A DNA stretch of 15,574 nt from Promethearchaeota archaeon (lineage in GTDB: Archaea > Asgardarchaeota > Lokiarchaeia > Sigyniarchaeales > SOKP01), in the NCBI GenBank assembly GCA_048938445.1, contig JBHLME010000107.1:1-15574 (forward strand). The letters are read 5' to 3'. Shown here one piece after another: positions 6,760-15,097 of the stretch (within the stretch, counting starts at the first letter, position 1; each line of letters starts with the position of its first letter). Made by a program: the position numbers and the translations under genes. The notes below the pieces were generated by a model. The model was not told where the DNA came from. It was given only the letters and a program-made list of their open reading frames with translations, and searched no databases.

Positions 6760-7293
6760 ATGAATGATGTCCAAATTAGTAAATTCATATCTTACGTCCT
6801 TCGACATAATCCAAAAGGAAAAGTCATTTCAGAAGATGGGTGGATGGATTTGAAAGATTTATTAGAGCTCCTGAACATCGAATTTTCTTATACAATAGAA
6901 CTTGATGATGTTATGCGCGTTGTTTCTGAAAATGATAAACAGCGATTTAAGATAAATGAAAACAAAATCAGAGCAAGTCAAGGGCATACTCTTAAAAAAA
7001 TTAAAATAGAACTAATCCCTCGTACACCTCCAGATATCTTATATCATGGGACAAAAAAACAGATATTGAAGATTATTAAAAAGGAAGGTCTTAAGAAAAT
7101 GAATCGTCATCACGTCCATCTTAGCGCTGAACGCAAAACGGCAGAAATCGTTGCAAGGCGATGGCATCAAGGAATCTTAATTCTTGAAATTGATACAAGA
7201 TCCATGCATCTTGATGGGTATGTTTTTTATCTTAGCGATAATGGAGTGTGGCTTACGGATAAAATCCCTCCGAGATATATTAAATTCATGTAG
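6760..7293 (+). CDS. kptA: RNA 2'-phosphotransferase (Tpt1/KptA)
   Basis: SKFISYVLRH, DKQRF, IRASQGH, LYHGT, RHHVHLS and NGVWLT motifs. Confidence 0.95.
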   Translation: MNDVQISKFISYVLRHNPKGKVISEDGWMDLKDLLELLNIEFSYTIELDDVMRVVSENDKQRFKINENKIRASQGHTLKKIKIELIPRTPPDILYHGTKKQILKIIKKEGLKKMNRHHVHLSAERKTAEIVARRWHQGILILEIDTRSMHLDGYVFYLSDNGVWLTDKIPPRYIKFM

Positions 7294-7431
7294 ATTTTAT
7301 GATATTTTTACAATTAATAACTAATTTTTAAAATTAATAATTATTACTTATGAACAAAAAAAATAGAATTAATTATAAGAAATTATTTTTCTTTAACTAA
7401 AATTAATCATTCAATCTCAATTATTAATATT

Positions 7432-7612
7432 TTGCTAATAATTGAAGAAAGATCAATCATGAAAAATAAATCTTTAAATACTCCTCATCCTTTTGTCAAG
7501 TGGGCGGGAGGTAAGAGACAATTAATACATAAAATTGAGAGATACTTACCGAAAACATTTAATAAATATATTGAACCTTTTGTTGGAGGGGGAGCTTTAT
7601 TATATCTTTTAT
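7432..7612 (+). pseudogene. dam: 5' remnant of a Dam-family DNA adenine methyltransferase
   Basis: [12 protein letters not shown]...[11 protein letters not shown] (motifs X and I), after which homology is lost. No DPPY motif. The ORF runs on into sequence antisense to the LAGLIDADG gene. Confidence 0.85.
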
Positions 7613-7654
7613 TTATAATGAACCTCTTTTTTATATGTTTGAGATTTGATCTCT

Positions 7655-8971
7655 TTAGAAATTTAATAATTCATTTAACTCCCATTTTTCTTTTGATGGA
7701 GGTTCAACATAAAACTCTTTACATTTATCGGAAATTAAATCATAGGTAAATTCTAATTTATGGCCTAAGTTCCAAATATAATTTTGATATTGTATTTCAG
7801 AAATTTCACCTTTCTCATGTAAAATCTCTTTATTTCTTATTAAGTTATTAAAAGTATTAATTAATTTGTTACTAATTGCTTTTCTTTTCAATTTAAAGGA
7901 AAATTTATAATTATTTAACATCAAAAGCATTAAATCTCGACCTAACTCTAATTTATAAACAATTCCTTTAGAATTATCCTTCTTTATAAAAAAATCCCTC
8001 AAAATTTTATTGCTAATATCAAAATAATCTTTAATTTGCTTAAGAAAAGTATAACTCCCTGAAGAAACTTTTGTCCTACCTGTAGTCCCATCTCCGTCAT
8101 AGTAACCAAGTATAAATCCTAAATATAATTCTTTTTGAGATATTTTATTATTACTGACAAGCTTTGGTAATTCAATATTTAATGATTTTTTATTACCAAC
8201 AATAAATCCTTTATTTATTAAATGTTGTGCAAATCTACTATTCATAAAACGAGCTAAATATGACCAGGAATTTGATTTTTTATCTCTATATTTATTTAAA
8301 TATTTTTGATTGAATCCTATTGCTGAACAATAATCTCTTATTAACGTGAAGTTTTTTTTTGATTGTTTTAGCCCTATTTCATAATTAGCATATTTTTTTG
8401 AAATGTCAAAGGATTTAGAAATCCAACCCTCTGCCCATAATAATCCTAACCAATATGCTTTTTCTACAGTATCTATACTTTCAAAGTAGTTTTCTATTAA
8501 TTTAGGATGAAAATTTTTACTTCGATAACTATTTGAGAATGGAGGGTTATGGATTTTCTTATATTTATAGATGGTTTTATCTATAAAACTAGTAATAATT
8601 TGCTTTGGTATATTATAACTCAATAATAACACTCTCAATTTAAGTTCATATTTATGTAAGAAATTTAAAGAAATTATATAATTAGTATTAATAGTAGCCT
8701 TTCTTAGAATATTCTTTATATGATTTTTCTTTTGACCTAAAAGAACACTTAAATCTTCGCTTTTTATTTTAGGAATTTTAACATATTTATAGTAAAATTT
8801 AGTATTACTTGATATTCTATTCATCAATAGTATTGAAATCCCTTGTTTTAGAGTTTCTATAAACTCTAATGATGTACTAAAATCATGATTTTCTTCAAAC
8901 CAAATACATATATTTTTATATTTAGATTTTAGATTTTTTAAATTTAAATTATTGATTGATTCATTTTTCAT
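7655..8971 (-). CDS. Free-standing double-motif LAGLIDADG homing-endonuclease-like protein
   Basis: [23 protein letters not shown] (motif 1) and [11 protein letters not shown] (motif 2), plus GNKKS..IELP and SGS..FL..IK. About 150-aa N-terminal extension. Extremely AT-rich. Confidence 0.85.
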
Positions 8972-9341
8972 TTGAAATATAATTCATTTATGATATTATC
9001 TACAATTTTTTAAAATAAAGTGTTAAGAGTCTATAGGTTTTTTATAAAACCATAATAATATAATTAAAATCAATTGTTCTTGATTTTTAATCACTAAAGT
9101 TACTAATGAAGGAAAACTCTAATAAAATAAATTCATTCTGAACGAAACAAATAAAAGGATTAATTTTTTCTTTAATTTCTAATAATTTATAATATTTATA
9201 ATATTTTTTTGTCGTTACAGATTGAATTAGATTTAAATAAATGAAATGAGTATTAATAATTATATTCTAAAGTGAATTTATTATTTATAAACAAATAATT
9301 GGATGATTGTTTACCTTTAAAAAATATTGAGGGATTAATAT

Positions 9342-10235
9342 TTGCTAGAAAAAAATTTGTTATCCAAGCAAAAAGATATTTATGGTGAAATCATTACTTC
9401 TAATCCTAAACCATTTCTGAAATGGGCGGGAGGGAAAAGAAAATTGATAAAACAAATGAGTAAATTTTTTCCTCAAAATTTTAATAATTATATAGAACCC
9501 TTTGTAGGAGGAGGTGCTGTATTTTTTTATTTATATTCTAAAAGAAAGCTGAATAACAAAATAGTTTTAATAGATAATAATAAAGAATTAATTAATTGCT
9601 ATAAAGTAATAAAAAATAATATTGAAGAATTAATTGAACTTCTTTACCATCATAAAAATGAAAAAAAATATTATTATGAAATTAGATCAAAAGATCGTAA
9701 TCCTGAAATATATAAAAAAATGTCTGATGTTGAAAAGGCTTCAAGAACTATTTATATGAATAAATGTTGTTATAACGGGCTTTATAGAGTAAATAGTAAA
9801 GGCCAATTTAATACCCCTTTCGGTTCGTATAAAAATCCAAATTTTTGTGATAAAGATAATTTAAAAGCGGTGAACATTGCACTTAAAGATGTTGATATAC
9901 TACATGGTTCATTTAAATTGTGCTTGAATTATGCAAATGAAGGAGATTTTGTTTATTTAGACCCACCATATTTCCCATTATCAGATACTTCATCTTTTAC
10001 AAGTTATACCAAAGAAGAATTTGGAATCGAAAAACAAAAAAATCTTTATCATATATTTAAAGAATTAGATAAACGCGGTTGTAAAGTATTATTAAGCAAT
10101 TCCTACAGTGATTTTATTCTGAATTTATATCAAGATTACAATAAAATTACATTAAAAGCGTCTAGAGCTATAAATTGTAATGGCTCTAAAAGAGGAGAAA
10201 TCAATGAAATTTTAATCCATAATGATTATAACTAA
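9342..10235 (+). CDS. dam: Dam-family (alpha class, D12) N6-adenine DNA methyltransferase, probably GATC-specific
   Basis: [47 protein letters not shown] and LLSNS motifs. TTG start preceded by SD-like GAGGGA. Confidence 0.95.
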   Translation: MLEKNLLSKQKDIYGEIITSNPKPFLKWAGGKRKLIKQMSKFFPQNFNNYIEPFVGGGAVFFYLYSKRKLNNKIVLIDNNKELINCYKVIKNNIEELIELLYHHKNEKKYYYEIRSKDRNPEIYKKMSDVEKASRTIYMNKCCYNGLYRVNSKGQFNTPFGSYKNPNFCDKDNLKAVNIALKDVDILHGSFKLCLNYANEGDFVYLDPPYFPLSDTSSFTSYTKEEFGIEKQKNLYHIFKELDKRGCKVLLSNSYSDFILNLYQDYNKITLKASRAINCNGSKRGEINEILIHNDYN

Positions 10236-10312
10236 AAATCTTTTAACTCTCTATTTATAAATAAGTTTTGTCTATCAGATAGTAATAGTATAACAAGATT
10301 TTGATAATAAAT

Positions 10313-11213
10313 ATGAATTCTAATGATATTGAAAACTCCGAGGAACCTTTAAGAAGAACTTTTATTTTTTTATTTAAGCATTCTAGAACACCTGAAGCAT
10401 TTTCAAAAGAAGAATTCAAAGAATTTGCACGATATCCAAATCCAAGTAGTTTTGATACATATTTTTCAAAAAAGTTTAGACACTTTCTTGAAGAAGCACC
10501 AAATGAAAATAATAAATATTTAGTATCTGATATATTTAAGGAATATTCTAGATGGGAAAAATTTAAGATATTTTGTTCACAAAGTTCCAAGCTTAAAGTA
10601 AATTATTTCGAGGAATATTATAAGGATGTAATGATTTTTGAGTTTTTTTTACCATTAACTAATGAAAATAATTTGAGATCTACTTTAGATGATCTTTTTT
10701 ATAAAGATACTGTAAAATTGGCTCTAAATAAGATAATTAAAAGGGAATTACATAAAGTTTTTCTAAAAAAAAAAAGAAGAATCTGAAGAAGAGTATATTG
10801 AAGGATTATGTAAATGGATTTCAGATAGATTTGGTGGATATTCAATTAGTACAGTTCGGGGAAGATTTAAGACTGATGAATTAAAGTCATATCATGAGGT
10901 TGCTCTTAATAAGTCAAAAGGTTTCGATTATTTAATTGATGAAACTACTGCTATTGTGCGCTTTATTTTTCCTGTTAGCTCTCCAGTTAAGAATAATGCT
11001 ATTTATAATATAGAACAATTTCAAGAGAACATAGATGATTATATTGACAAGAAAGAGATACTAACAGAATCTAAGAAGATAAGATATTTATTCAAAAATT
11101 TATTTGTTAGAAAAATACTTGATTTAGTGAAGGGTGAGGATGAGATTTGGATGCTTGAAAGTGGTTTGAGGAATCAATTATATGTCTGGAAAAATGAATT
11201 TTTCAATAATTAA
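10313..11213 (+). pseudogene. Single hypothetical gene (~299 aa if repaired) split by a frameshift at an A11 run (10765-10775)
   Basis: Deleting one A joins ORF 10301..10786 to an open frame (EESEEEYIEGLCKWISDRFGGYSISTVRGRF...YLIDETTAIVRFIFP) that continues into ORF 10956..11213. Confidence 0.8.
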
Positions 11214-11232
11214 AAACAAATTAGTTATCAAA

Positions 11233-11790
11233 TCAAATGTCTTTAAACTCATCATCTATTAGATTCTTTAATTTAAAGCGCCCACTAAAATTCCAATATC
11301 TAATATCTTGTTCAATAAACATCCATTTTACAATTTTTAATATTACATCAATCTTCTCACCTTGAGAAAAAGAGACCTTTTTAGATACTAACCAATTTAA
11401 AATCCAATTATCATCTTCACAAATAAAAATTTTTTCTATACTTCTAATAAGATACCTAAAATCTTTCAGATTTTCTTCTTTCTTTATTTTTAAATCTTGA
11501 ATAATGTCTTGATAACTTGGCATTTTATCCTTATTAACTCTATTCCATTTTTCAACCCAAATTTGAAAATCAAATCCATATTTATATTGAGCAGGTCTAA
11601 CGAGATATAATATTCTCTGATCGATAAAATTTTCAACAATATATCTATACCTTGAAACTTTATTCCCAGTTCCTTTACCTGGATCCTCCTCCATAAATTT
11701 CAAAACAACGGATTTTCTTAATTCATTTCGAGAATTAAGCTTAGGAAGATTCCAACTAATTGTAATATAATTAAAAGGAATCTTTATCAT
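11233..11790 (-). CDS. Hypothetical protein, candidate Type II restriction endonuclease
   Basis: 185 aa with motif-like segments RPAQ...GFDF, PSY.DI..DL..KK and KWMFIEQDIRYWNFSGR. The functional call comes from context (between two MTases, next to Mig), not from a recognised catalytic motif. Confidence 0.5.
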   Translation of the reverse strand: MIKIPFNYITISWNLPKLNSRNELRKSVVLKFMEEDPGKGTGNKVSRYRYIVENFIDQRILYLVRPAQYKYGFDFQIWVEKWNRVNKDKMPSYQDIIQDLKIKKEENLKDFRYLIRSIEKIFICEDDNWILNWLVSKKVSFSQGEKIDVILKIVKWMFIEQDIRYWNFSGRFKLKNLIDDEFKDI

Positions 11791-11810
11791 CTCTAATAGA
11801 GTATTTTAAT

Positions 11811-11827
11811 ATTATTATAACTTTTTG
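11811..11827 (-). promoter_or_regulatory. Putative BRE/TATA promoter (leaderless spacing) for the 11790 gene
   Basis: Minus strand reads CAAAAAGTTATAATAAT about 21-37 nt upstream of the ATG. Confidence 0.35.
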
Positions 11828-11978
11828 TCATTATTTATTTATATTTAGATATTCTTATAAAAACATTTTAATTGATTATTATAAAAGCATTACCAAAATA
11901 TTATAATGATATAAATCTACAAATAAAATATAAAGAAGTCCTTGTTTTAAACGAATTTATTTAACTATTGAATAAAAA

Positions 11979-12629
11979 ATGAAATCTAAAGATAACCAGT
12001 TTGTTACAAATCTTCTTGAATGGTTCAAGGAAAATAAAAGACATTTTTCTTGGCGTAATTCAGATTTAACTCCATTTCAAATATTAATTGCAGAAATAAT
12101 GCTACAAAAAACAGGAGCTACACAAGTAGAAAAACTTTTTCCTGATTTCATTAAAGCATATCCTAATCCTAAAACAATTAATGAATTAAATATAAAAATT
12201 TTAGAAGAAATTTTACATCCATTAGGCTTATACCAGAGACGGGCAAGAGATATTAAAAAAACTGCTAAGAAGATTTGGGAAAATGGTAATAAGCTTCCAA
12301 AAACTAAAAAAGATTTAATGGCTTTACCCGGAGTAGGAGAATATATTGCCAATGCTATATTATGTTTTGCTTTCCAAGAACCTGTACCTATTATAGATGC
12401 TAATGTAGGGCGCGTAATAAAAAGAGTGTTTTCTTTTCCAGTTAAAAGTGCTCCTTCAAGAGATAAGAAACTATTAGAAAGAATGATGGACATAATTCCT
12501 GAGATAAATTATAAGGAATTTAATCTAGCAATTTTAGATTTTGCTGCTTTAATTTGTATCCCTAGAAATCCTCGATGTGAAAACTGTCCATTATCAAAGA
12601 TTTGCGAATTTAATGCAAAATATATATAA
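11979..12629 (+). CDS. mig: HhH-GPD [4Fe-4S] DNA glycosylase, Mig/TDG-type T/G-mismatch glycosylase
   Basis: WR...PFQILIAEIMLQKTGA, LPGVGEY (HhH), IIDANVGRV, FNLAILDF and the CxxxxxxCxxCxxxxxC cluster motif. 216 aa, with no MutY C-terminal domain. Confidence 0.8.
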   Translation: MKSKDNQFVTNLLEWFKENKRHFSWRNSDLTPFQILIAEIMLQKTGATQVEKLFPDFIKAYPNPKTINELNIKILEEILHPLGLYQRRARDIKKTAKKIWENGNKLPKTKKDLMALPGVGEYIANAILCFAFQEPVPIIDANVGRVIKRVFSFPVKSAPSRDKKLLERMMDIIPEINYKEFNLAILDFAALICIPRNPRCENCPLSKICEFNAKYI

Positions 12630-12661
12630 AGGAAAAAAATGAGTTAAAAATAAACTAAACT

Positions 12662-13087
12662 TTATGTCTCACTTTCAGAGCATGTGCAATTTTCACACGG
12701 ATTACCGCATCCCTCACACGGATCAGAACACCCGCATCCCCCACACATTGCCGCAAGAGTAACGGCTAGTGACAAAAATACTAAATACATTAGCCATAGG
12801 ATGATGAAAAAAACTATTTGAAATATTACAGTTCCGCTTCCAAGAATTATTCCTATTATTGCCATTGTTTTATTTTCCTCCTTTACAGCCCCAATAATTC
12901 CAAAGGTGATAGCTAGACCTGCTAAAATAAATCCAGTGATTATACAGAAGATTAATATATTGCTAAGGTAAGGTTCAACTATTGGTATAACTGAAGACAA
13001 AAATATGGCATATAAAATAAATGCTAGTAATGGTAAAAATGCGAGAATTCCCGTAATTAATGAGACAAGCCCATATCTACTCTTCAT
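12662..13087 (-). CDS. Small multi-TM membrane protein (DUF4190-like) with a Cys-rich C-terminal tail
   Basis: Three to four hydrophobic segments (GLVSLITGIL, LAITFGIIG...MAIIGIILG) and a tail with 8 Cys. Start more likely the ATG at 13087 than 13117. Confidence 0.75.
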   Translation of the reverse strand: MKSRYGLVSLITGILAFLPLLAFILYAIFLSSVIPIVEPYLSNILIFCIITGFILAGLAITFGIIGAVKEENKTMAIIGIILGSGTVIFQIVFFIILWLMYLVFLSLAVTLAAMCGGCGCSDPCEGCGNPCENCTCSESET

Positions 13088-13146
13088 TAAAATACCCTTC
13101 TTTTTTTTTTTTAACATTTTTGTAATTATATTAATTTTTTTTTTCT

Positions 13147-13163: not shown

Positions 13164-13430
13164 ATACAATTTTAGATATCAATTTTGATTAAATTTATTA
13201 CTCAAGAATGTATTAGACACGAAATAATAACGAGAATTATAAAAAAGGATTTTTTTATTGAAGAATAAATATGTGATTATTGATCATCTTATTGAATGTA
13301 GTAGAATTAGTCAATTTTTCACTAAAGTGGGTTTAAATATTTTAATTGCTAATGAAATATTGACTCGTGTTAAAGAGATATGTATACTTACCTATGGAGT
13401 TCATATTATTATCAATGAAGTTATTATCGT

Positions 13431-13742
13431 TCAATAACCTAAAATTACAAAAAAACTTCCAATATTACCTATTGCTGCAAAAAATCCTAATATTCCTCCT
13501 ATTGTAGCCATACTAGTTCCGGGTTCCAACTTAATTCCATACCAGCCAAATAAAATTGCAAGTAATCCGAAGGTAATTCCACTCATCATAATAATTATAA
13601 AAACAATTCTGGCAATATATATATGATAAGGATTTATTGGATAATTGCGCAATAAAACATAAAAAGCAATAATAGATAACAATCCCAATATTGCACAAAT
13701 TAATGAAGTTAGCCCACTTTTATTTTCCACTTTAAAGACCAT
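13431..13742 (-). CDS. Small 3-TM membrane protein (DUF4190-like), paralogue of 12662..13087
   Basis: GLTSLICAIL, LLAILFGWYG and SMATIGGILG align with the neighbouring gene. Confidence 0.75.
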   Translation of the reverse strand: MVFKVENKSGLTSLICAILGLLSIIAFYVLLRNYPINPYHIYIARIVFIIIMMSGITFGLLAILFGWYGIKLEPGTSMATIGGILGFFAAIGNIGSFFVILGY

Positions 13743-13912: not shown

Positions 13913-15097
13913 TTGAAGAATAAATACACGGTCATTGATCTTTTTAGTGGATGTGGTGGATTTAGTCAAGGATTTTTAAAAGTAGGATATGAAATTATTG
14001 CGGCAAATGAAATATGGAATCCCGCTATAGAAACATATAGACTTAATCATGGAAAAGATATTATGATCGATGGAGATATAACATCTTTAGAAATAAAAAA
14101 AAAATTATATAACCGAGTCAAAGGAAAGAAAATTAACGTCATCATAGGTGGCCCTCCATGCCAAGGCTACTCCTCAGCGGGAAATAGAAATCCAGATGAT
14201 CCAAGAGGTCAATTATACTTAGATTTCGTGGAGATCATAGATCATCTCAAACCTGATATTTTTATCATGGAAAATGTAAAAGGTCTATTAAACATGAAGC
14301 ATATTAACTCAAAATTGGATTTGAATGAAAAAAATAAATTTAAACAAGATTGTAAAAGATTACAAAGATATAAGGATTTAAAACGATATAAAGCTCAAAG
14401 GGAGTTGGATGTTCAAGAATCCAAAGAATTTTTTGATTTAAGGGATAATTTAAAGACCATTAAAAATGATATTAACAAGCAATTAATCCCTTTATTAAAC
14501 AAGATATTGACAGCATTTAAAGAAATCAATTATATGGTCTCTTGGAAAATCCTCAATTCTGCGGATTATGGTGTCCCACAAACTCGAGAAAGAATTATTT
14601 TTATAGGAACTAGACATGATTATGTTAATATTTCTTTTCCAAAAGAAGAATTTGTTAAAACAAACACAAATTCAGTTAATAAAAAATTACATTTATGGAA
14701 AACAGCTTCGGAAGTATTAAAAAGATATGAAAACTGGCCTGAGGACAGTGAACGGAACCATTTATTCACAAAACATTCACCTAATTTTATTAAGAAAATT
14801 AAAAGCACTCAAATCGGAGATACTGTTTATAAGAATTATAATGATGCATGGTGGAGGTTAGATCCAGAAAAACCTGCCAGAACCGTTAAAGAAAACCATG
14901 GAGGTGTGTTTATACATTATAAATTCGATAGAGCGTGTACACCTAGAGAACTAGCAGCACTACAGTCATTTGATGATGATTTTATATTTAAAGGGACAAA
15001 AAGTGCGATTTTAAAACAAATTGGGAATGCTGTTCCACCATTAATGGCAAAAGCCATAGCATTGAATATTAAAAGTACTCTCGATAAATTAAAATAG
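13913..15097 (+). CDS. dcm: C5-cytosine DNA methyltransferase with a ~65-70 aa insertion after motif VI
   Basis: DLFSGCGG (I), GGPPCQGYS (IV), ENV (VI), YGVPQTRERII (VIII), TPRELAALQSF (IX) and QIGNAVPP (X). TRD contains RTVKENHGG. TTG start. Confidence 0.95.
   Translation: MKNKYTVIDLFSGCGGFSQGFLKVGYEIIAANEIWNPAIETYRLNHGKDIMIDGDITSLEIKKKLYNRVKGKKINVIIGGPPCQGYSSAGNRNPDDPRGQLYLDFVEIIDHLKPDIFIMENVKGLLNMKHINSKLDLNEKNKFKQDCKRLQRYKDLKRYKAQRELDVQESKEFFDLRDNLKTIKNDINKQLIPLLNKILTAFKEINYMVSWKILNSADYGVPQTRERIIFIGTRHDYVNISFPKEEFVKTNTNSVNKKLHLWKTASEVLKRYENWPEDSERNHLFTKHSPNFIKKIKSTQIGDTVYKNYNDAWWRLDPEKPARTVKENHGGVFIHYKFDRACTPRELAALQSFDDDFIFKGTKSAILKQIGNAVPPLMAKAIALNIKSTLDKLK

Follow-up and report, generated by a model that had tools for sequence, protein, structure and literature searches.

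Much is known of free-standing homing endonucleases in phages and organelles, and to our knowledge they have hardly been described as drivers of gene replacement in archaeal chromosomes. We analyzed a 15,574-nucleotide (nt) stretch of Promethearchaeota DNA (contig JBHLME010000107.1; below, the window), which is an entire contig of a 4.6-Mb metagenome-assembled genome (MAG) with 8% contamination, and which carries a broken dam gene, a free-standing LAGLIDADG endonuclease gene and a complete second dam gene side by side. Several described systems, as their published accounts present them, come close to this arrangement. The free-standing seg and mob endonucleases of T4-like phages spread together with flanking DNA by cutting genomes that lack them, and the linked allele is protected (PMC2790892, PMC2988022). 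In fungal mitochondria, free-standing GIY-YIG or LAGLIDADG open reading frames (ORFs) lie beside duplicated gene pieces that have turned into pseudogenes, as described for atp6, cox1 and the atp9 N-terminus (PMC7487136). Restriction-modification (R-M) systems show an association with insertion and substitution polymorphisms, in which methylase-containing cassettes are inserted or substituted relative to genomes with an empty site (PMC2853133). LAGLIDADG elements insert into conserved parts of actinophage orphan methylase genes and pass from one divergent methylase to another (PMC9957025). Finally, in 'molecular vaccination' a solitary methylase of the same specificity neutralizes post-segregational killing, and R-M systems and solitary methylases replace each other (PMC2993543).

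The locus described here is best explained as an endonuclease-linked invasion of dam, which would be a new variant of intronless homing. As with T4 seg and mob, a free-standing endonuclease gene lies between or beside other genes. The phage enzymes are described as GIY-YIG or HNH proteins that act in phage co-infection through homologous repair, with near-identical flanks co-converted, whereas here the enzyme is a LAGLIDADG protein in archaeal chromosomes, the target has been partly deleted and functionally replaced by a 53–60% identical paralogue carried in the element, and the junctions show no donor homology. The fungal mitochondrial case is similar in that an endonuclease ORF adjoins a duplicated piece of a gene (PMC7487136). 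In that account, however, the duplicates are local copies, 90–100% identical, in organelles, whereas here the remnant and the intact gene belong to different lineages, extra genes have been brought in, and sister species retain empty alleles. With regard to the R-M polymorphisms, the abstract of the report names integrases, transposases and repeats, not homing endonucleases (PMC2853133); at our locus neither repeats nor an integrase are present, and, unlike in those polymorphisms as described, the insertion target is a methylase gene of the same family. The actinophage intein and LAGLIDADG insertions are described as in-frame, with one continuous methylase kept, whereas here a free-standing endonuclease gene runs antisense, the target has been destroyed and a complete second methylase is provided. 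In the vaccination literature, as far as its account goes, the solitary methylase protects; here we would have the converse, an incoming cassette that eliminates a solitary methylase, both the equal specificity and the restriction activity being putative. A free-standing LAGLIDADG gene, a carried replacement methylase and a destroyed resident methylase in an archaeal chromosome are combined in none of the compared systems, as far as their accounts go, and the literature searched contained no description of an endonuclease-led replacement of a methylase gene in archaea.

The gene content of the window was established from left to right using the ORF listing and Pfam. The features of the dam locus are the following.

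6760–7293: kptA.
7423–7437, plus strand: 15-nt motif ATTAATATTTTGCTA with an in-frame TTG inside, upstream of the dam remnant; it recurs at 9334–9347 and 12951–12965.
7432–7749, plus strand: 105-codon ORF holding the dam remnant.
7459–7612, plus strand: 5' remnant of the resident (genus-type) dam, running from the ATG to and including motif I (FVGGGA); the resemblance to the empty allele is gradually lost over 7601–7612.
7613–7654: left end of the inserted block, about 40 nt from the break to the endonuclease stop codon, with no match to the empty allele in the alignment.
7655–8971, minus strand: free-standing, single-chain LAGLIDADG endonuclease gene of clade W, 438 amino acids, intact.
8972–9341: divergent spacer of 370 nt between the endonuclease gene and the new dam; the G010 spacer has 365 nt and the two sequences are not alignable.
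9342–10235, plus strand: incoming intact dam, encoding a Dam-family N6-adenine methylase, with only TTG starts available.
About 9534–9548, plus strand: 5-residue insertion of the incoming dam, at the position of the old dam's break.
10301–11213, plus strand: gene X, 304 amino acids when intact in G010 and frameshifted here; a candidate restriction partner by context only.
11233–11790, minus strand: gene Y, 185 amino acids, always paired with X in A/B-type cassettes.
11791–11930: AT-rich right end of the inserted block, matching neither G010 nor the empty allele.
11931–11963, plus strand: 3' scrap of the resident dam, seven codons (KEVLVLN) followed by a short divergent tail to the stop.
11979–12629, plus strand: short MutY/EndoIII-like HhH-GPD glycosylase, 216 amino acids; right flank in common with the empty alleles.

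The ORF at 7432–7749 matches Pfam MethyltransfD12 only over residues 24–58 (E 3.4e-9), which correspond to the first 36 profile positions. It aligns with the intact dam of the window over 60 residues with 47% identity, and the similarity to dam then stops; at the DNA level the two form a direct repeat of 134 nt (7479–7612 and 9401–9534) with 72% identity. These results confirm what had been proposed in an earlier, sequence-only reading of the window, namely that one dam copy is broken just after motif I. The boundaries given there were partly corrected: the breakage is real, but the TTG at 7432 need not be the start, as the ATG at 7459 lines up with the start of the same-genus dam, and the break may lie at 7601/7602 rather than at 7612. 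The remnant therefore holds the first ~48–52 codons of dam (7459 to ~7601/7612). The second gene, at 9342–10235, is a complete dam with its own N-terminus, diverged from the remnant as claimed: it matches Pfam PF02086 (D12) with an E of 4.9e-64 over profile positions 1–253, scores 290 bits against NCBIfam TIGR00571 (cut-off 114.85), and its translation shows FVGGGA and DPPYF, the FxGxG and DPPY motifs of the alpha-class Dam family. GATC would be its expected target from family membership. The arrangement is neither an intein nor an intron, in agreement with the sequence-only reading, since the endonuclease gene stands alone on the opposite strand, the second dam begins with an N-terminus of its own, and an Rfam scan of the window returned no match of any kind, including any intron.

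A common sequence context at the two dam starts, ATTAATAT(T)TTGCTA, had also been noted and proved to be real: the window has three copies (7423, 9334 and 12951) versus none expected from 200 shuffles. The motif was absent from all non-window loci compared, and G004, a genome of the same genus, does not have the exact motif upstream of its dam. The 14–15-nt motif, which lies upstream of both dam starts, is a possible operator or promoter element. The third copy, at 12951–12965 in the form ATTAATAT(N)TTGCTA, sits inside a membrane-protein ORF.

To find related loci, we searched 40 relatives with dam and then compared the ORFs. Three of the five same-genus genomes (G003, G004 and G005) have an empty allele, in which a single dam is directly followed by the glycosylase gene; the C5 cytosine methylase gene is also nearby in G004 and G005, while the G003 contig is short. 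No dam match was found in the other two, which are 68% and 74% complete. Nucleotide homology between the window and G004 extends over 7405–7601 (75%) and resumes at 11931, continuing at 74% to 12614; the in-frame KEVLVLN codons at 11931–11951 are identical to the C-terminus of the G004 dam. On the basis of these flanks, ~660 bp of resident dam (roughly codon 49–53 to ~270) have been replaced by a ~4.3-kb block, from 7602/7613 to 11930, leaving behind the 5' 48–52 codons and the last seven codons. The host now depends on the incoming dam. The earlier reading thus identified the 5' remnant correctly but missed the 3' scrap at 11931–11951. It also predicted an empty allele in related genomes with kptA next to an intact dam; the empty alleles exist, but kptA was seen beside dam in none of the same-genus genomes that carry them. 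In G005, kptA is at a contig end, and the sequence beyond it shows neither overlap with nor resemblance to the start of the dam contig, and in G003 another gene, not kptA, lies upstream of dam. A search of the block ends for terminal repeats or a target-site duplication found only AT-rich matches at chance level.

The origin of the two dam genes was assessed by identity and phylogeny. The remnant is identical to the G004 dam at 42 of 53 residues, to the intact dam of the window at 28 of 53, and to any other dam compared at no more than 34 of 53. A quick IQ-TREE tree was built from 36 rows, comprising 34 full genes trimmed to the aligned part and two pieces, with hits of fewer than 240 aligned residues left out. 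In this tree the remnant groups with the same-genus dams (approximate likelihood ratio test, SH-aLRT, 94), while the intact dam of the window pairs with the dam of G010, which belongs to another genus (SH-aLRT 90). The remnant together with 55–65 nt upstream matches the same-genus locus, not the new dam. By these comparisons the remnant is the resident gene and the intact dam is foreign. Differences between the remnant and G004 are distributed 5/10/23 over codon positions 1/2/3, indicating that most of the divergence accrued under selection, before breakage.

These data also bear on the explanation that the locus is an artefact, either a contig chimeric near 7612 or a diverged local tandem duplicate of the 5' end of the present dam. 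We checked the assembly against Logan contigs, among which X1 is possibly the source sample, so that its support is not independent. The left junction is covered by a 5325-nt X1 contig (6500–8996) and, with 0 differences, by a 267-nt X8 contig from a different study (7502–7768), whereas a single 1969-nt contig, again from X1, crosses the right junction (10894–12700), which has no independent bridge. Portions of the endonuclease gene, the new dam and X, the frameshift region at 10605–10963 among them, recur in X3 contigs of a third study. The misassembly near 7612 that had been named as a possible refutation therefore has no sign at the left junction in two studies, and at the right junction the support comes from the possible source run. 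An artefact would fit the 8% contamination of the MAG, the apparent old local duplication at the C5 methylase of the same window, and three contigs of the sediment run X4, one of which ends at 7599, while in two the match extends to 7601 and dam continues beyond it without interruption (GGGALFFYLLPPKAI). The latter two could reflect the uninterrupted allele of a co-occurring close relative rather than an assembly error; the match may be only ~31 nt long, and we took them as a hint and did not use them as evidence. Neither form of artefact would account for the bridged junctions, the same-genus match of the remnant and its upstream DNA, or the presence of the old dam's 3' end at 11931–11951, and we consider an artefact very improbable.

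The antisense gene at 7655–8971 encodes a two-motif LAGLIDADG protein, as had been read from the sequence; the Pfam match, both motifs and the predicted fold agree. The protein matches Pfam LAGLIDADG_3 (E 2.2e-5, 25.1 bits versus a cut-off of 22.5), and the best match in a PDB profile search is an I-DmoI/I-CreI chimera (E 7.3e-4). The two motifs lie in one chain and each ends in an acidic residue (E181 and D294). In an alignment of nine endonucleases the acidic residues of both motifs are kept in all nine, and D292-G293-D294-G295 is invariant; the first catalytic acid, E181, is D in the G180 and G263 relatives. The AlphaFold model, with a predicted local distance difference test (pLDDT) score of 83.8, contains the twofold pseudo-symmetric alpha-beta-beta-alpha-beta-beta-alpha core of LAGLIDADG enzymes at residues 169–254 and 279–354. 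Foldseek returned 48 matches to the model at E ≤ 0.001, and among the matches listed all are LAGLIDADG enzymes or LAGLIDADG-bearing inteins with probability 1.00, including the bI3 maturase, I-Tsp061I, PI-PfuI, I-SceI, I-AniI and I-DmoI. The core is extended by ~150 N-terminal and ~80 C-terminal helical residues, which may add DNA contacts. The ORF is intact in all three members of its clade, and from the model and the conserved acids the enzyme looks competent.

The distribution of the endonuclease family was determined by a search of 135 genomes, which gave 148 LAGLIDADG hits in 70 genomes, with up to seven per genome. Many of these hits are inside very long frames (600–1358 amino acids), possibly inteins or fusions, and several contain stop codons. 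We cross-checked the hits by eye against all dam hits (dam being present in 61 of the 135 genomes) and found six within 3 kb of dam on the same contig: the window, G263:C114, G180:C6, G010:C26, G189:C147 and G232:C39. The window, G263 and G180 genes are the query and its two best hits (48–50% identity, E about 1e-120), the next best hit having 44%. The eight next-best hits with flanking sequence (L103–L110) have no dam, X or Y nearby, and thirteen further homologues sit among housekeeping genes. A tree of 24 rows was calculated from the six dam-adjacent genes and 18 others with intact-frame loci, leaving out the broken or short hits L008–L010, L013, L019 and L020. It resolves a clade W (window, G263 and G180; SH-aLRT 100), all three members of which touch dam sequence, as compared with six of 148 family hits near dam, and a clade T (G010, G232 and G189; SH-aLRT 97), which is entirely dam-adjacent; no dam-adjacent row falls outside these two clades. 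A search with the G010 protein found no further clade-T members, G232 and G189 being 59–60% identical to it and the next hit, at 48%, lying on a contig without dam. Among the 135 genomes, the comparison shows two endonuclease clades associated exclusively with the dam-cassette neighbourhood. The expectation of the sequence-only reading that homologues of this endonuclease neighbour dam genes was thus borne out within its own clade.

Beyond these genomes, a metagenome scan yielded 34 loci, of which the sole clade-W locus (L114) repeats the arrangement and the identity figures of G263:C114 and was not counted; the other 33 have no dam, X, Y or beta-class methylase within the flanking DNA covered. 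Viral contigs contained no relatives of X and only distant LAGLIDADG proteins (at most 36% identity over the core for most), and no viral vehicle was identified. Three further candidates were rejected. F17, a small antisense ORF at the position of the endonuclease gene in genus g11, was considered as a decayed endonuclease and has no similarity to it, and what look like extra dam fragments in G188 and G177:C396 are genes cut off at contig ends rather than remnants.

A second, independent event was found in G180. Here the gene order is ATPase gene, dam_B (minus strand), X, Y (minus strand), clade-W endonuclease gene (minus strand), a 133-codon 3' dam fragment and a pyruvate-formate-lyase-like (PFL-like) gene, whereas in three genomes of the same genus (G185, G183 and G184) a single dam is all that separates the ATPase gene from the PFL-like gene; these three show the empty locus. 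G180 and G185 are 88.7% identical over 1413 nt on the left and 84.3% identical over 917 nt on the right, and within these flanks G180 has 4334 bp in place of the 605 bp of G185. The G180 fragment is 79% identical to the G185 dam and 56% identical to G180's own full dam; in the dam tree it groups with G185 and G184 (SH-aLRT 89), and the full dam groups with that of G254 (SH-aLRT 99). The fragment starts right after FNxPFG, at YKNPNF, about 90–115 nt from the start of the endonuclease gene. The window is therefore filled where G003–G005 are empty, and G180 is filled where G183–G185 are empty. Taken together, the comparisons show that a ~4.3-kb block has overwritten a resident dam on two occasions, in separate genera and in different chromosomal contexts. 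Both blocks consist of a foreign dam, X, Y and a clade-W endonuclease gene, with the endonuclease gene as the terminal gene beside the broken dam. In G263, the clade-W gene adjoins the 3' end of an intact dam, after its stop codon.

The G263 arrangement is what might be expected if the block had formed in two steps, the endonuclease gene alone having killed the resident dam and the foreign dam with X and Y having been acquired later to restore methylation, with deletion of the intervening DNA. In G180, too, the endonuclease gene lies against the resident remnant, with X and Y standing between it and the cassette dam, and the architecture of the block differs between the window and G180. The window block, however, has the same four genes as G010, in the same order and orientation and with the same 365–370-nt spacer, which argues for travel as one piece, and no dam split by an endonuclease gene alone turned up in the search of 135 genomes. 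We regard this order of events as improbable.

The cassette itself has a wider distribution. The dam, X and Y proteins of the window and G010 share 65–70% identity, and dam+X+Y are 73% identical at the nucleotide level over 2420 nt. A search of 400 genomes of the phylum found X in 15, nearly all from one family. In eight genomes the dam-X(-Y) cassette occupies one conserved slot, between a MoxR-type ATPase/VWA pair and the PFL-like gene; the cassette of the window lies elsewhere, inside the genus's own dam, indicating that it was moved. In G191, a clade-T remnant lies after Y. In G190, an IS605 OrfB/TnpB (Cas12f-like) gene adjoins the dam-X-Y cassette (L088, G190:C85, 10474–11793).

We interpret these findings as an endonuclease-initiated invasion of a resident solitary dam by a composite selfish module consisting of the clade-W gene, its own dam, X and Y, and give this interpretation a probability of roughly 0.58. 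The endonuclease, expressed from the incoming DNA, would cut the resident dam just after the sequence coding for motif I. The break would then be resected, with loss of several hundred bp, and sealed around the block through joining that is non-homologous or guided by microhomology, or else through one-ended copying, not by two-sided homologous repair. The incoming dam would escape cutting because a 15-nt insertion splits the site, and subsequent decay of X by frameshift would leave a new 'solitary' dam.

The candidate immune allele was identified by comparing dam sequences. Of 34 aligned full dams, two have a 5-residue insertion (YSKRK / KKDLI region), the new dam of the window and that of G010, and these are the two with an antisense endonuclease gene 365–370 nt upstream. 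The insertion occupies the alignment columns where the remnant ends, and there is one other rare insertion in 275 core columns. Recognition of a ~20-bp LAGLIDADG site would be lost if 15 nt were inserted into it. The position and distribution of the insertion are suggestive only, and would be those of a cleavage-immune incoming allele.

Several observations weigh against the invasion as we interpret it. Neither junction shows donor homology, hybrid sequence or repeats, so that this is not textbook homing. The break points differ, lying at codon ~50 in the window (after FxGxG), at codon ~140 in G180 (after FNxPFG) and after the stop codon in G263, and one conserved target site is therefore not evident; neither a shared insertion point nor homologous copying was found. 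The donor is unsampled, the best nucleotide match to the block being 73%. The endonucleases of the window and G010 are only 30–32% identical although their dam, X and Y proteins share 65–70%. The eight genomes with the cassette at one conserved chromosomal locus imply that much of its history was vertical, and the endonuclease kin are few and related, so that the counts overstate independence. No intact endonuclease gene adjoins in seven of the 14 X-bearing loci examined, although G191 among them has a remnant and three of the contigs end close to X. In G175 (L097, G175:C4, 8128–8247) a dam fragment lies beside X with no endonuclease gene nearby; it comprises 36–40 internal dam residues from the motif IV region and lies immediately upstream of X, the cassette being of the X-then-dam type. 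Finally, the window has a C5-methylase 5' remnant with no endonuclease gene nearby, and methylase 5' remnants can accordingly arise in other ways. With respect to the earlier proposal of intronless homing with gene replacement, the replacement of dam by an endonuclease-terminated block is upheld, and classical homing by homologous repair is not, in view of the ~660 bp replaced, the lack of donor homology or terminal repeats and the differing break points.

An alternative reading of the same facts is that the endonuclease is a passenger: the dam-X-Y cassette would itself move and replace resident dams, either by recombination in conserved dam segments or by illegitimate integration, and the LAGLIDADG genes would be independent parasites of cassette edges. 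This explanation is kept alive by the differing breaks, the lack of donor homology, the cassettes without an endonuclease gene (G190, G235, G175 and G026) and the C5-methylase remnant. It agrees with the G175 fragment, with the variable position of the endonuclease gene (upstream of dam, after Y or after dam), with the large size of the family (148 hits), mostly in unrelated contexts, and with breaks at the best-conserved coding motifs, the places of greatest nucleotide identity from one dam to another (the remnant and the G010 dam share 78% over 120 nt). It sits less easily with the finding that in both events with large remnants the endonuclease gene is the terminal gene abutting the broken dam, and that in G180 it abuts the resident remnant rather than the cassette's own dam. 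Both cassette-linked clades are, moreover, exclusive to this neighbourhood among the 135 genomes, no chimeric dam was seen of the kind that dam-to-dam recombination would produce, and the insertion of the incoming dam at the break point would be left unexplained. We consider a passenger role possible but on the unlikely side, and favor invasion initiated by the endonuclease.

The locus had been called an R-M cassette. As written, that label is unproven: neither X nor Y matches a family, no nuclease fold is apparent in the X model, and X is frameshifted. In the window, X has a +1 frameshift relative to G010 in an A11 run at 10766–10776, which could be simple decay or slippage-prone switching. 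Neither X nor Y had a match in Pfam, NCBIfam, PADLOC, PDB-profile or ESM Atlas searches. Two domains are seen in the AlphaFold model of X (pLDDT 71), one winged-helix and one ferredoxin-like; its structural matches in Foldseek and VIA-align are middling, and no nuclease fold stands out among them. A phage S-adenosylmethionine lyase was the best match, and with a Z of 7.4, within the range that the tool calls common, it led to no assignment. Among eight more distant X loci, a D12 methylase adjoins X in two (Polyangiaceae and Pyrinomonadaceae records), and a beta-class adenine methylase adjoins it or lies within ~1.2 kb in two others (adjoining in a Terriglobia record and ~1.2 kb away in another Promethearchaeota record). 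These contexts suggest that X is the partner of a methylase and a member of an uncharacterized family of defence or restriction proteins with a winged-helix N-terminal domain, and the label 'R-M cassette' is reasonable in this sense. The bacterial X homologues (L158, L159 and L162–L164, from Polyangiaceae, Terriglobia, Pyrinomonadaceae, Vicinamibacterales and Colwellia) are 34–43% identical; in the Vicinamibacterales record X lies beside AbiEii and a PD-(D/E)XK gene, and a reverse transcriptase is also among the neighbours of the bacterial homologues.

In G010 (L064, G010:C26), a second type of methylase is broken. A 43-codon 5' remnant of a beta-class N6/N4 methylase at 7537–7665 ends immediately after DPPYFLSN, and the 3' end of the clade-T endonuclease gene overlaps the end of this remnant. 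An intact beta-methylase copy lies beyond Y (11913–12749) and is identical at 28 of 43 residues over the remnant stretch. Shorter beta-methylase remnants were seen at the cassette edge in G191 and G232 (L090, 6212–6289; L092, 9908–10009). The G010 arrangement is the same architecture as that of the window with another methylase; its 43 duplicated codons also resemble the long target duplication of the R-M polymorphisms as described (PMC2853133). With the dams of the window and G180 overwritten in the same way, these endonuclease-led elements appear to seek out methylase genes.

A broader version of the invasion scheme, which we put forward only tentatively and consider doubtful, is that the endonuclease and a methylase-linked, probably restriction, cassette form one selfish unit. 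Such a unit would home into the host's solitary methylase of the same family, destroy the 'vaccine' gene, substitute its own cleavage-immune allele and make the host dependent on it, and decay of the partner would leave a new solitary dam open to invasion. If this is true, methylases would undergo a cycle of turnover in Asgard (Promethearchaeota) chromosomes, and the beta-methylase remnant beside a clade-T endonuclease gene in G010 would represent the same strategy applied to a second methylase. The locus offers two independent pairs of filled and empty alleles, a candidate target (the dam motif-I region) and a candidate immune allele, which makes the system directly testable at the bench. It bears on the mobilization of neighbouring cargo into a non-identical target by endonuclease genes, on the turnover of solitary dam genes and on whether methylase genes are favored for landing. 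A further yield is a set of new LAGLIDADG enzymes that have long, putatively DNA-binding extensions at the N- and C-termini and whose natural targets may be inferable.

To the right of the glycosylase gene, the window contains the following features.

12662–13117 and 13431–13742, minus strand: two small membrane-protein ORFs between the glycosylase and C5-methylase genes.
13913–15097, plus strand: C5 cytosine methylase, part of the genus's conserved dam-glycosylase-C5 methylase neighbourhood.

The 216-residue glycosylase has no NUDIX-type C-terminal domain, and its gene lies 3' of dam in the G003, G004 and G005 loci (L066, L067 and L068); it is possibly a mismatch glycosylase serving the C5 methylase. 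The C5-methylase 5' remnant mentioned above is found at 13246–13416 on the plus strand. It is decayed, comprises 57 residues that are 46% identical to the intact gene at 13913, and its motif I is ruined (IDHLIECSRISQFF versus IDLFSGCGGFSQGF). It lies between the two small membrane-protein genes, which are paralogous, and no endonuclease gene is nearby. The remnant looks like the product of an old tandem duplication of a unit made up of a membrane-protein gene and the 5' end of the methylase gene.

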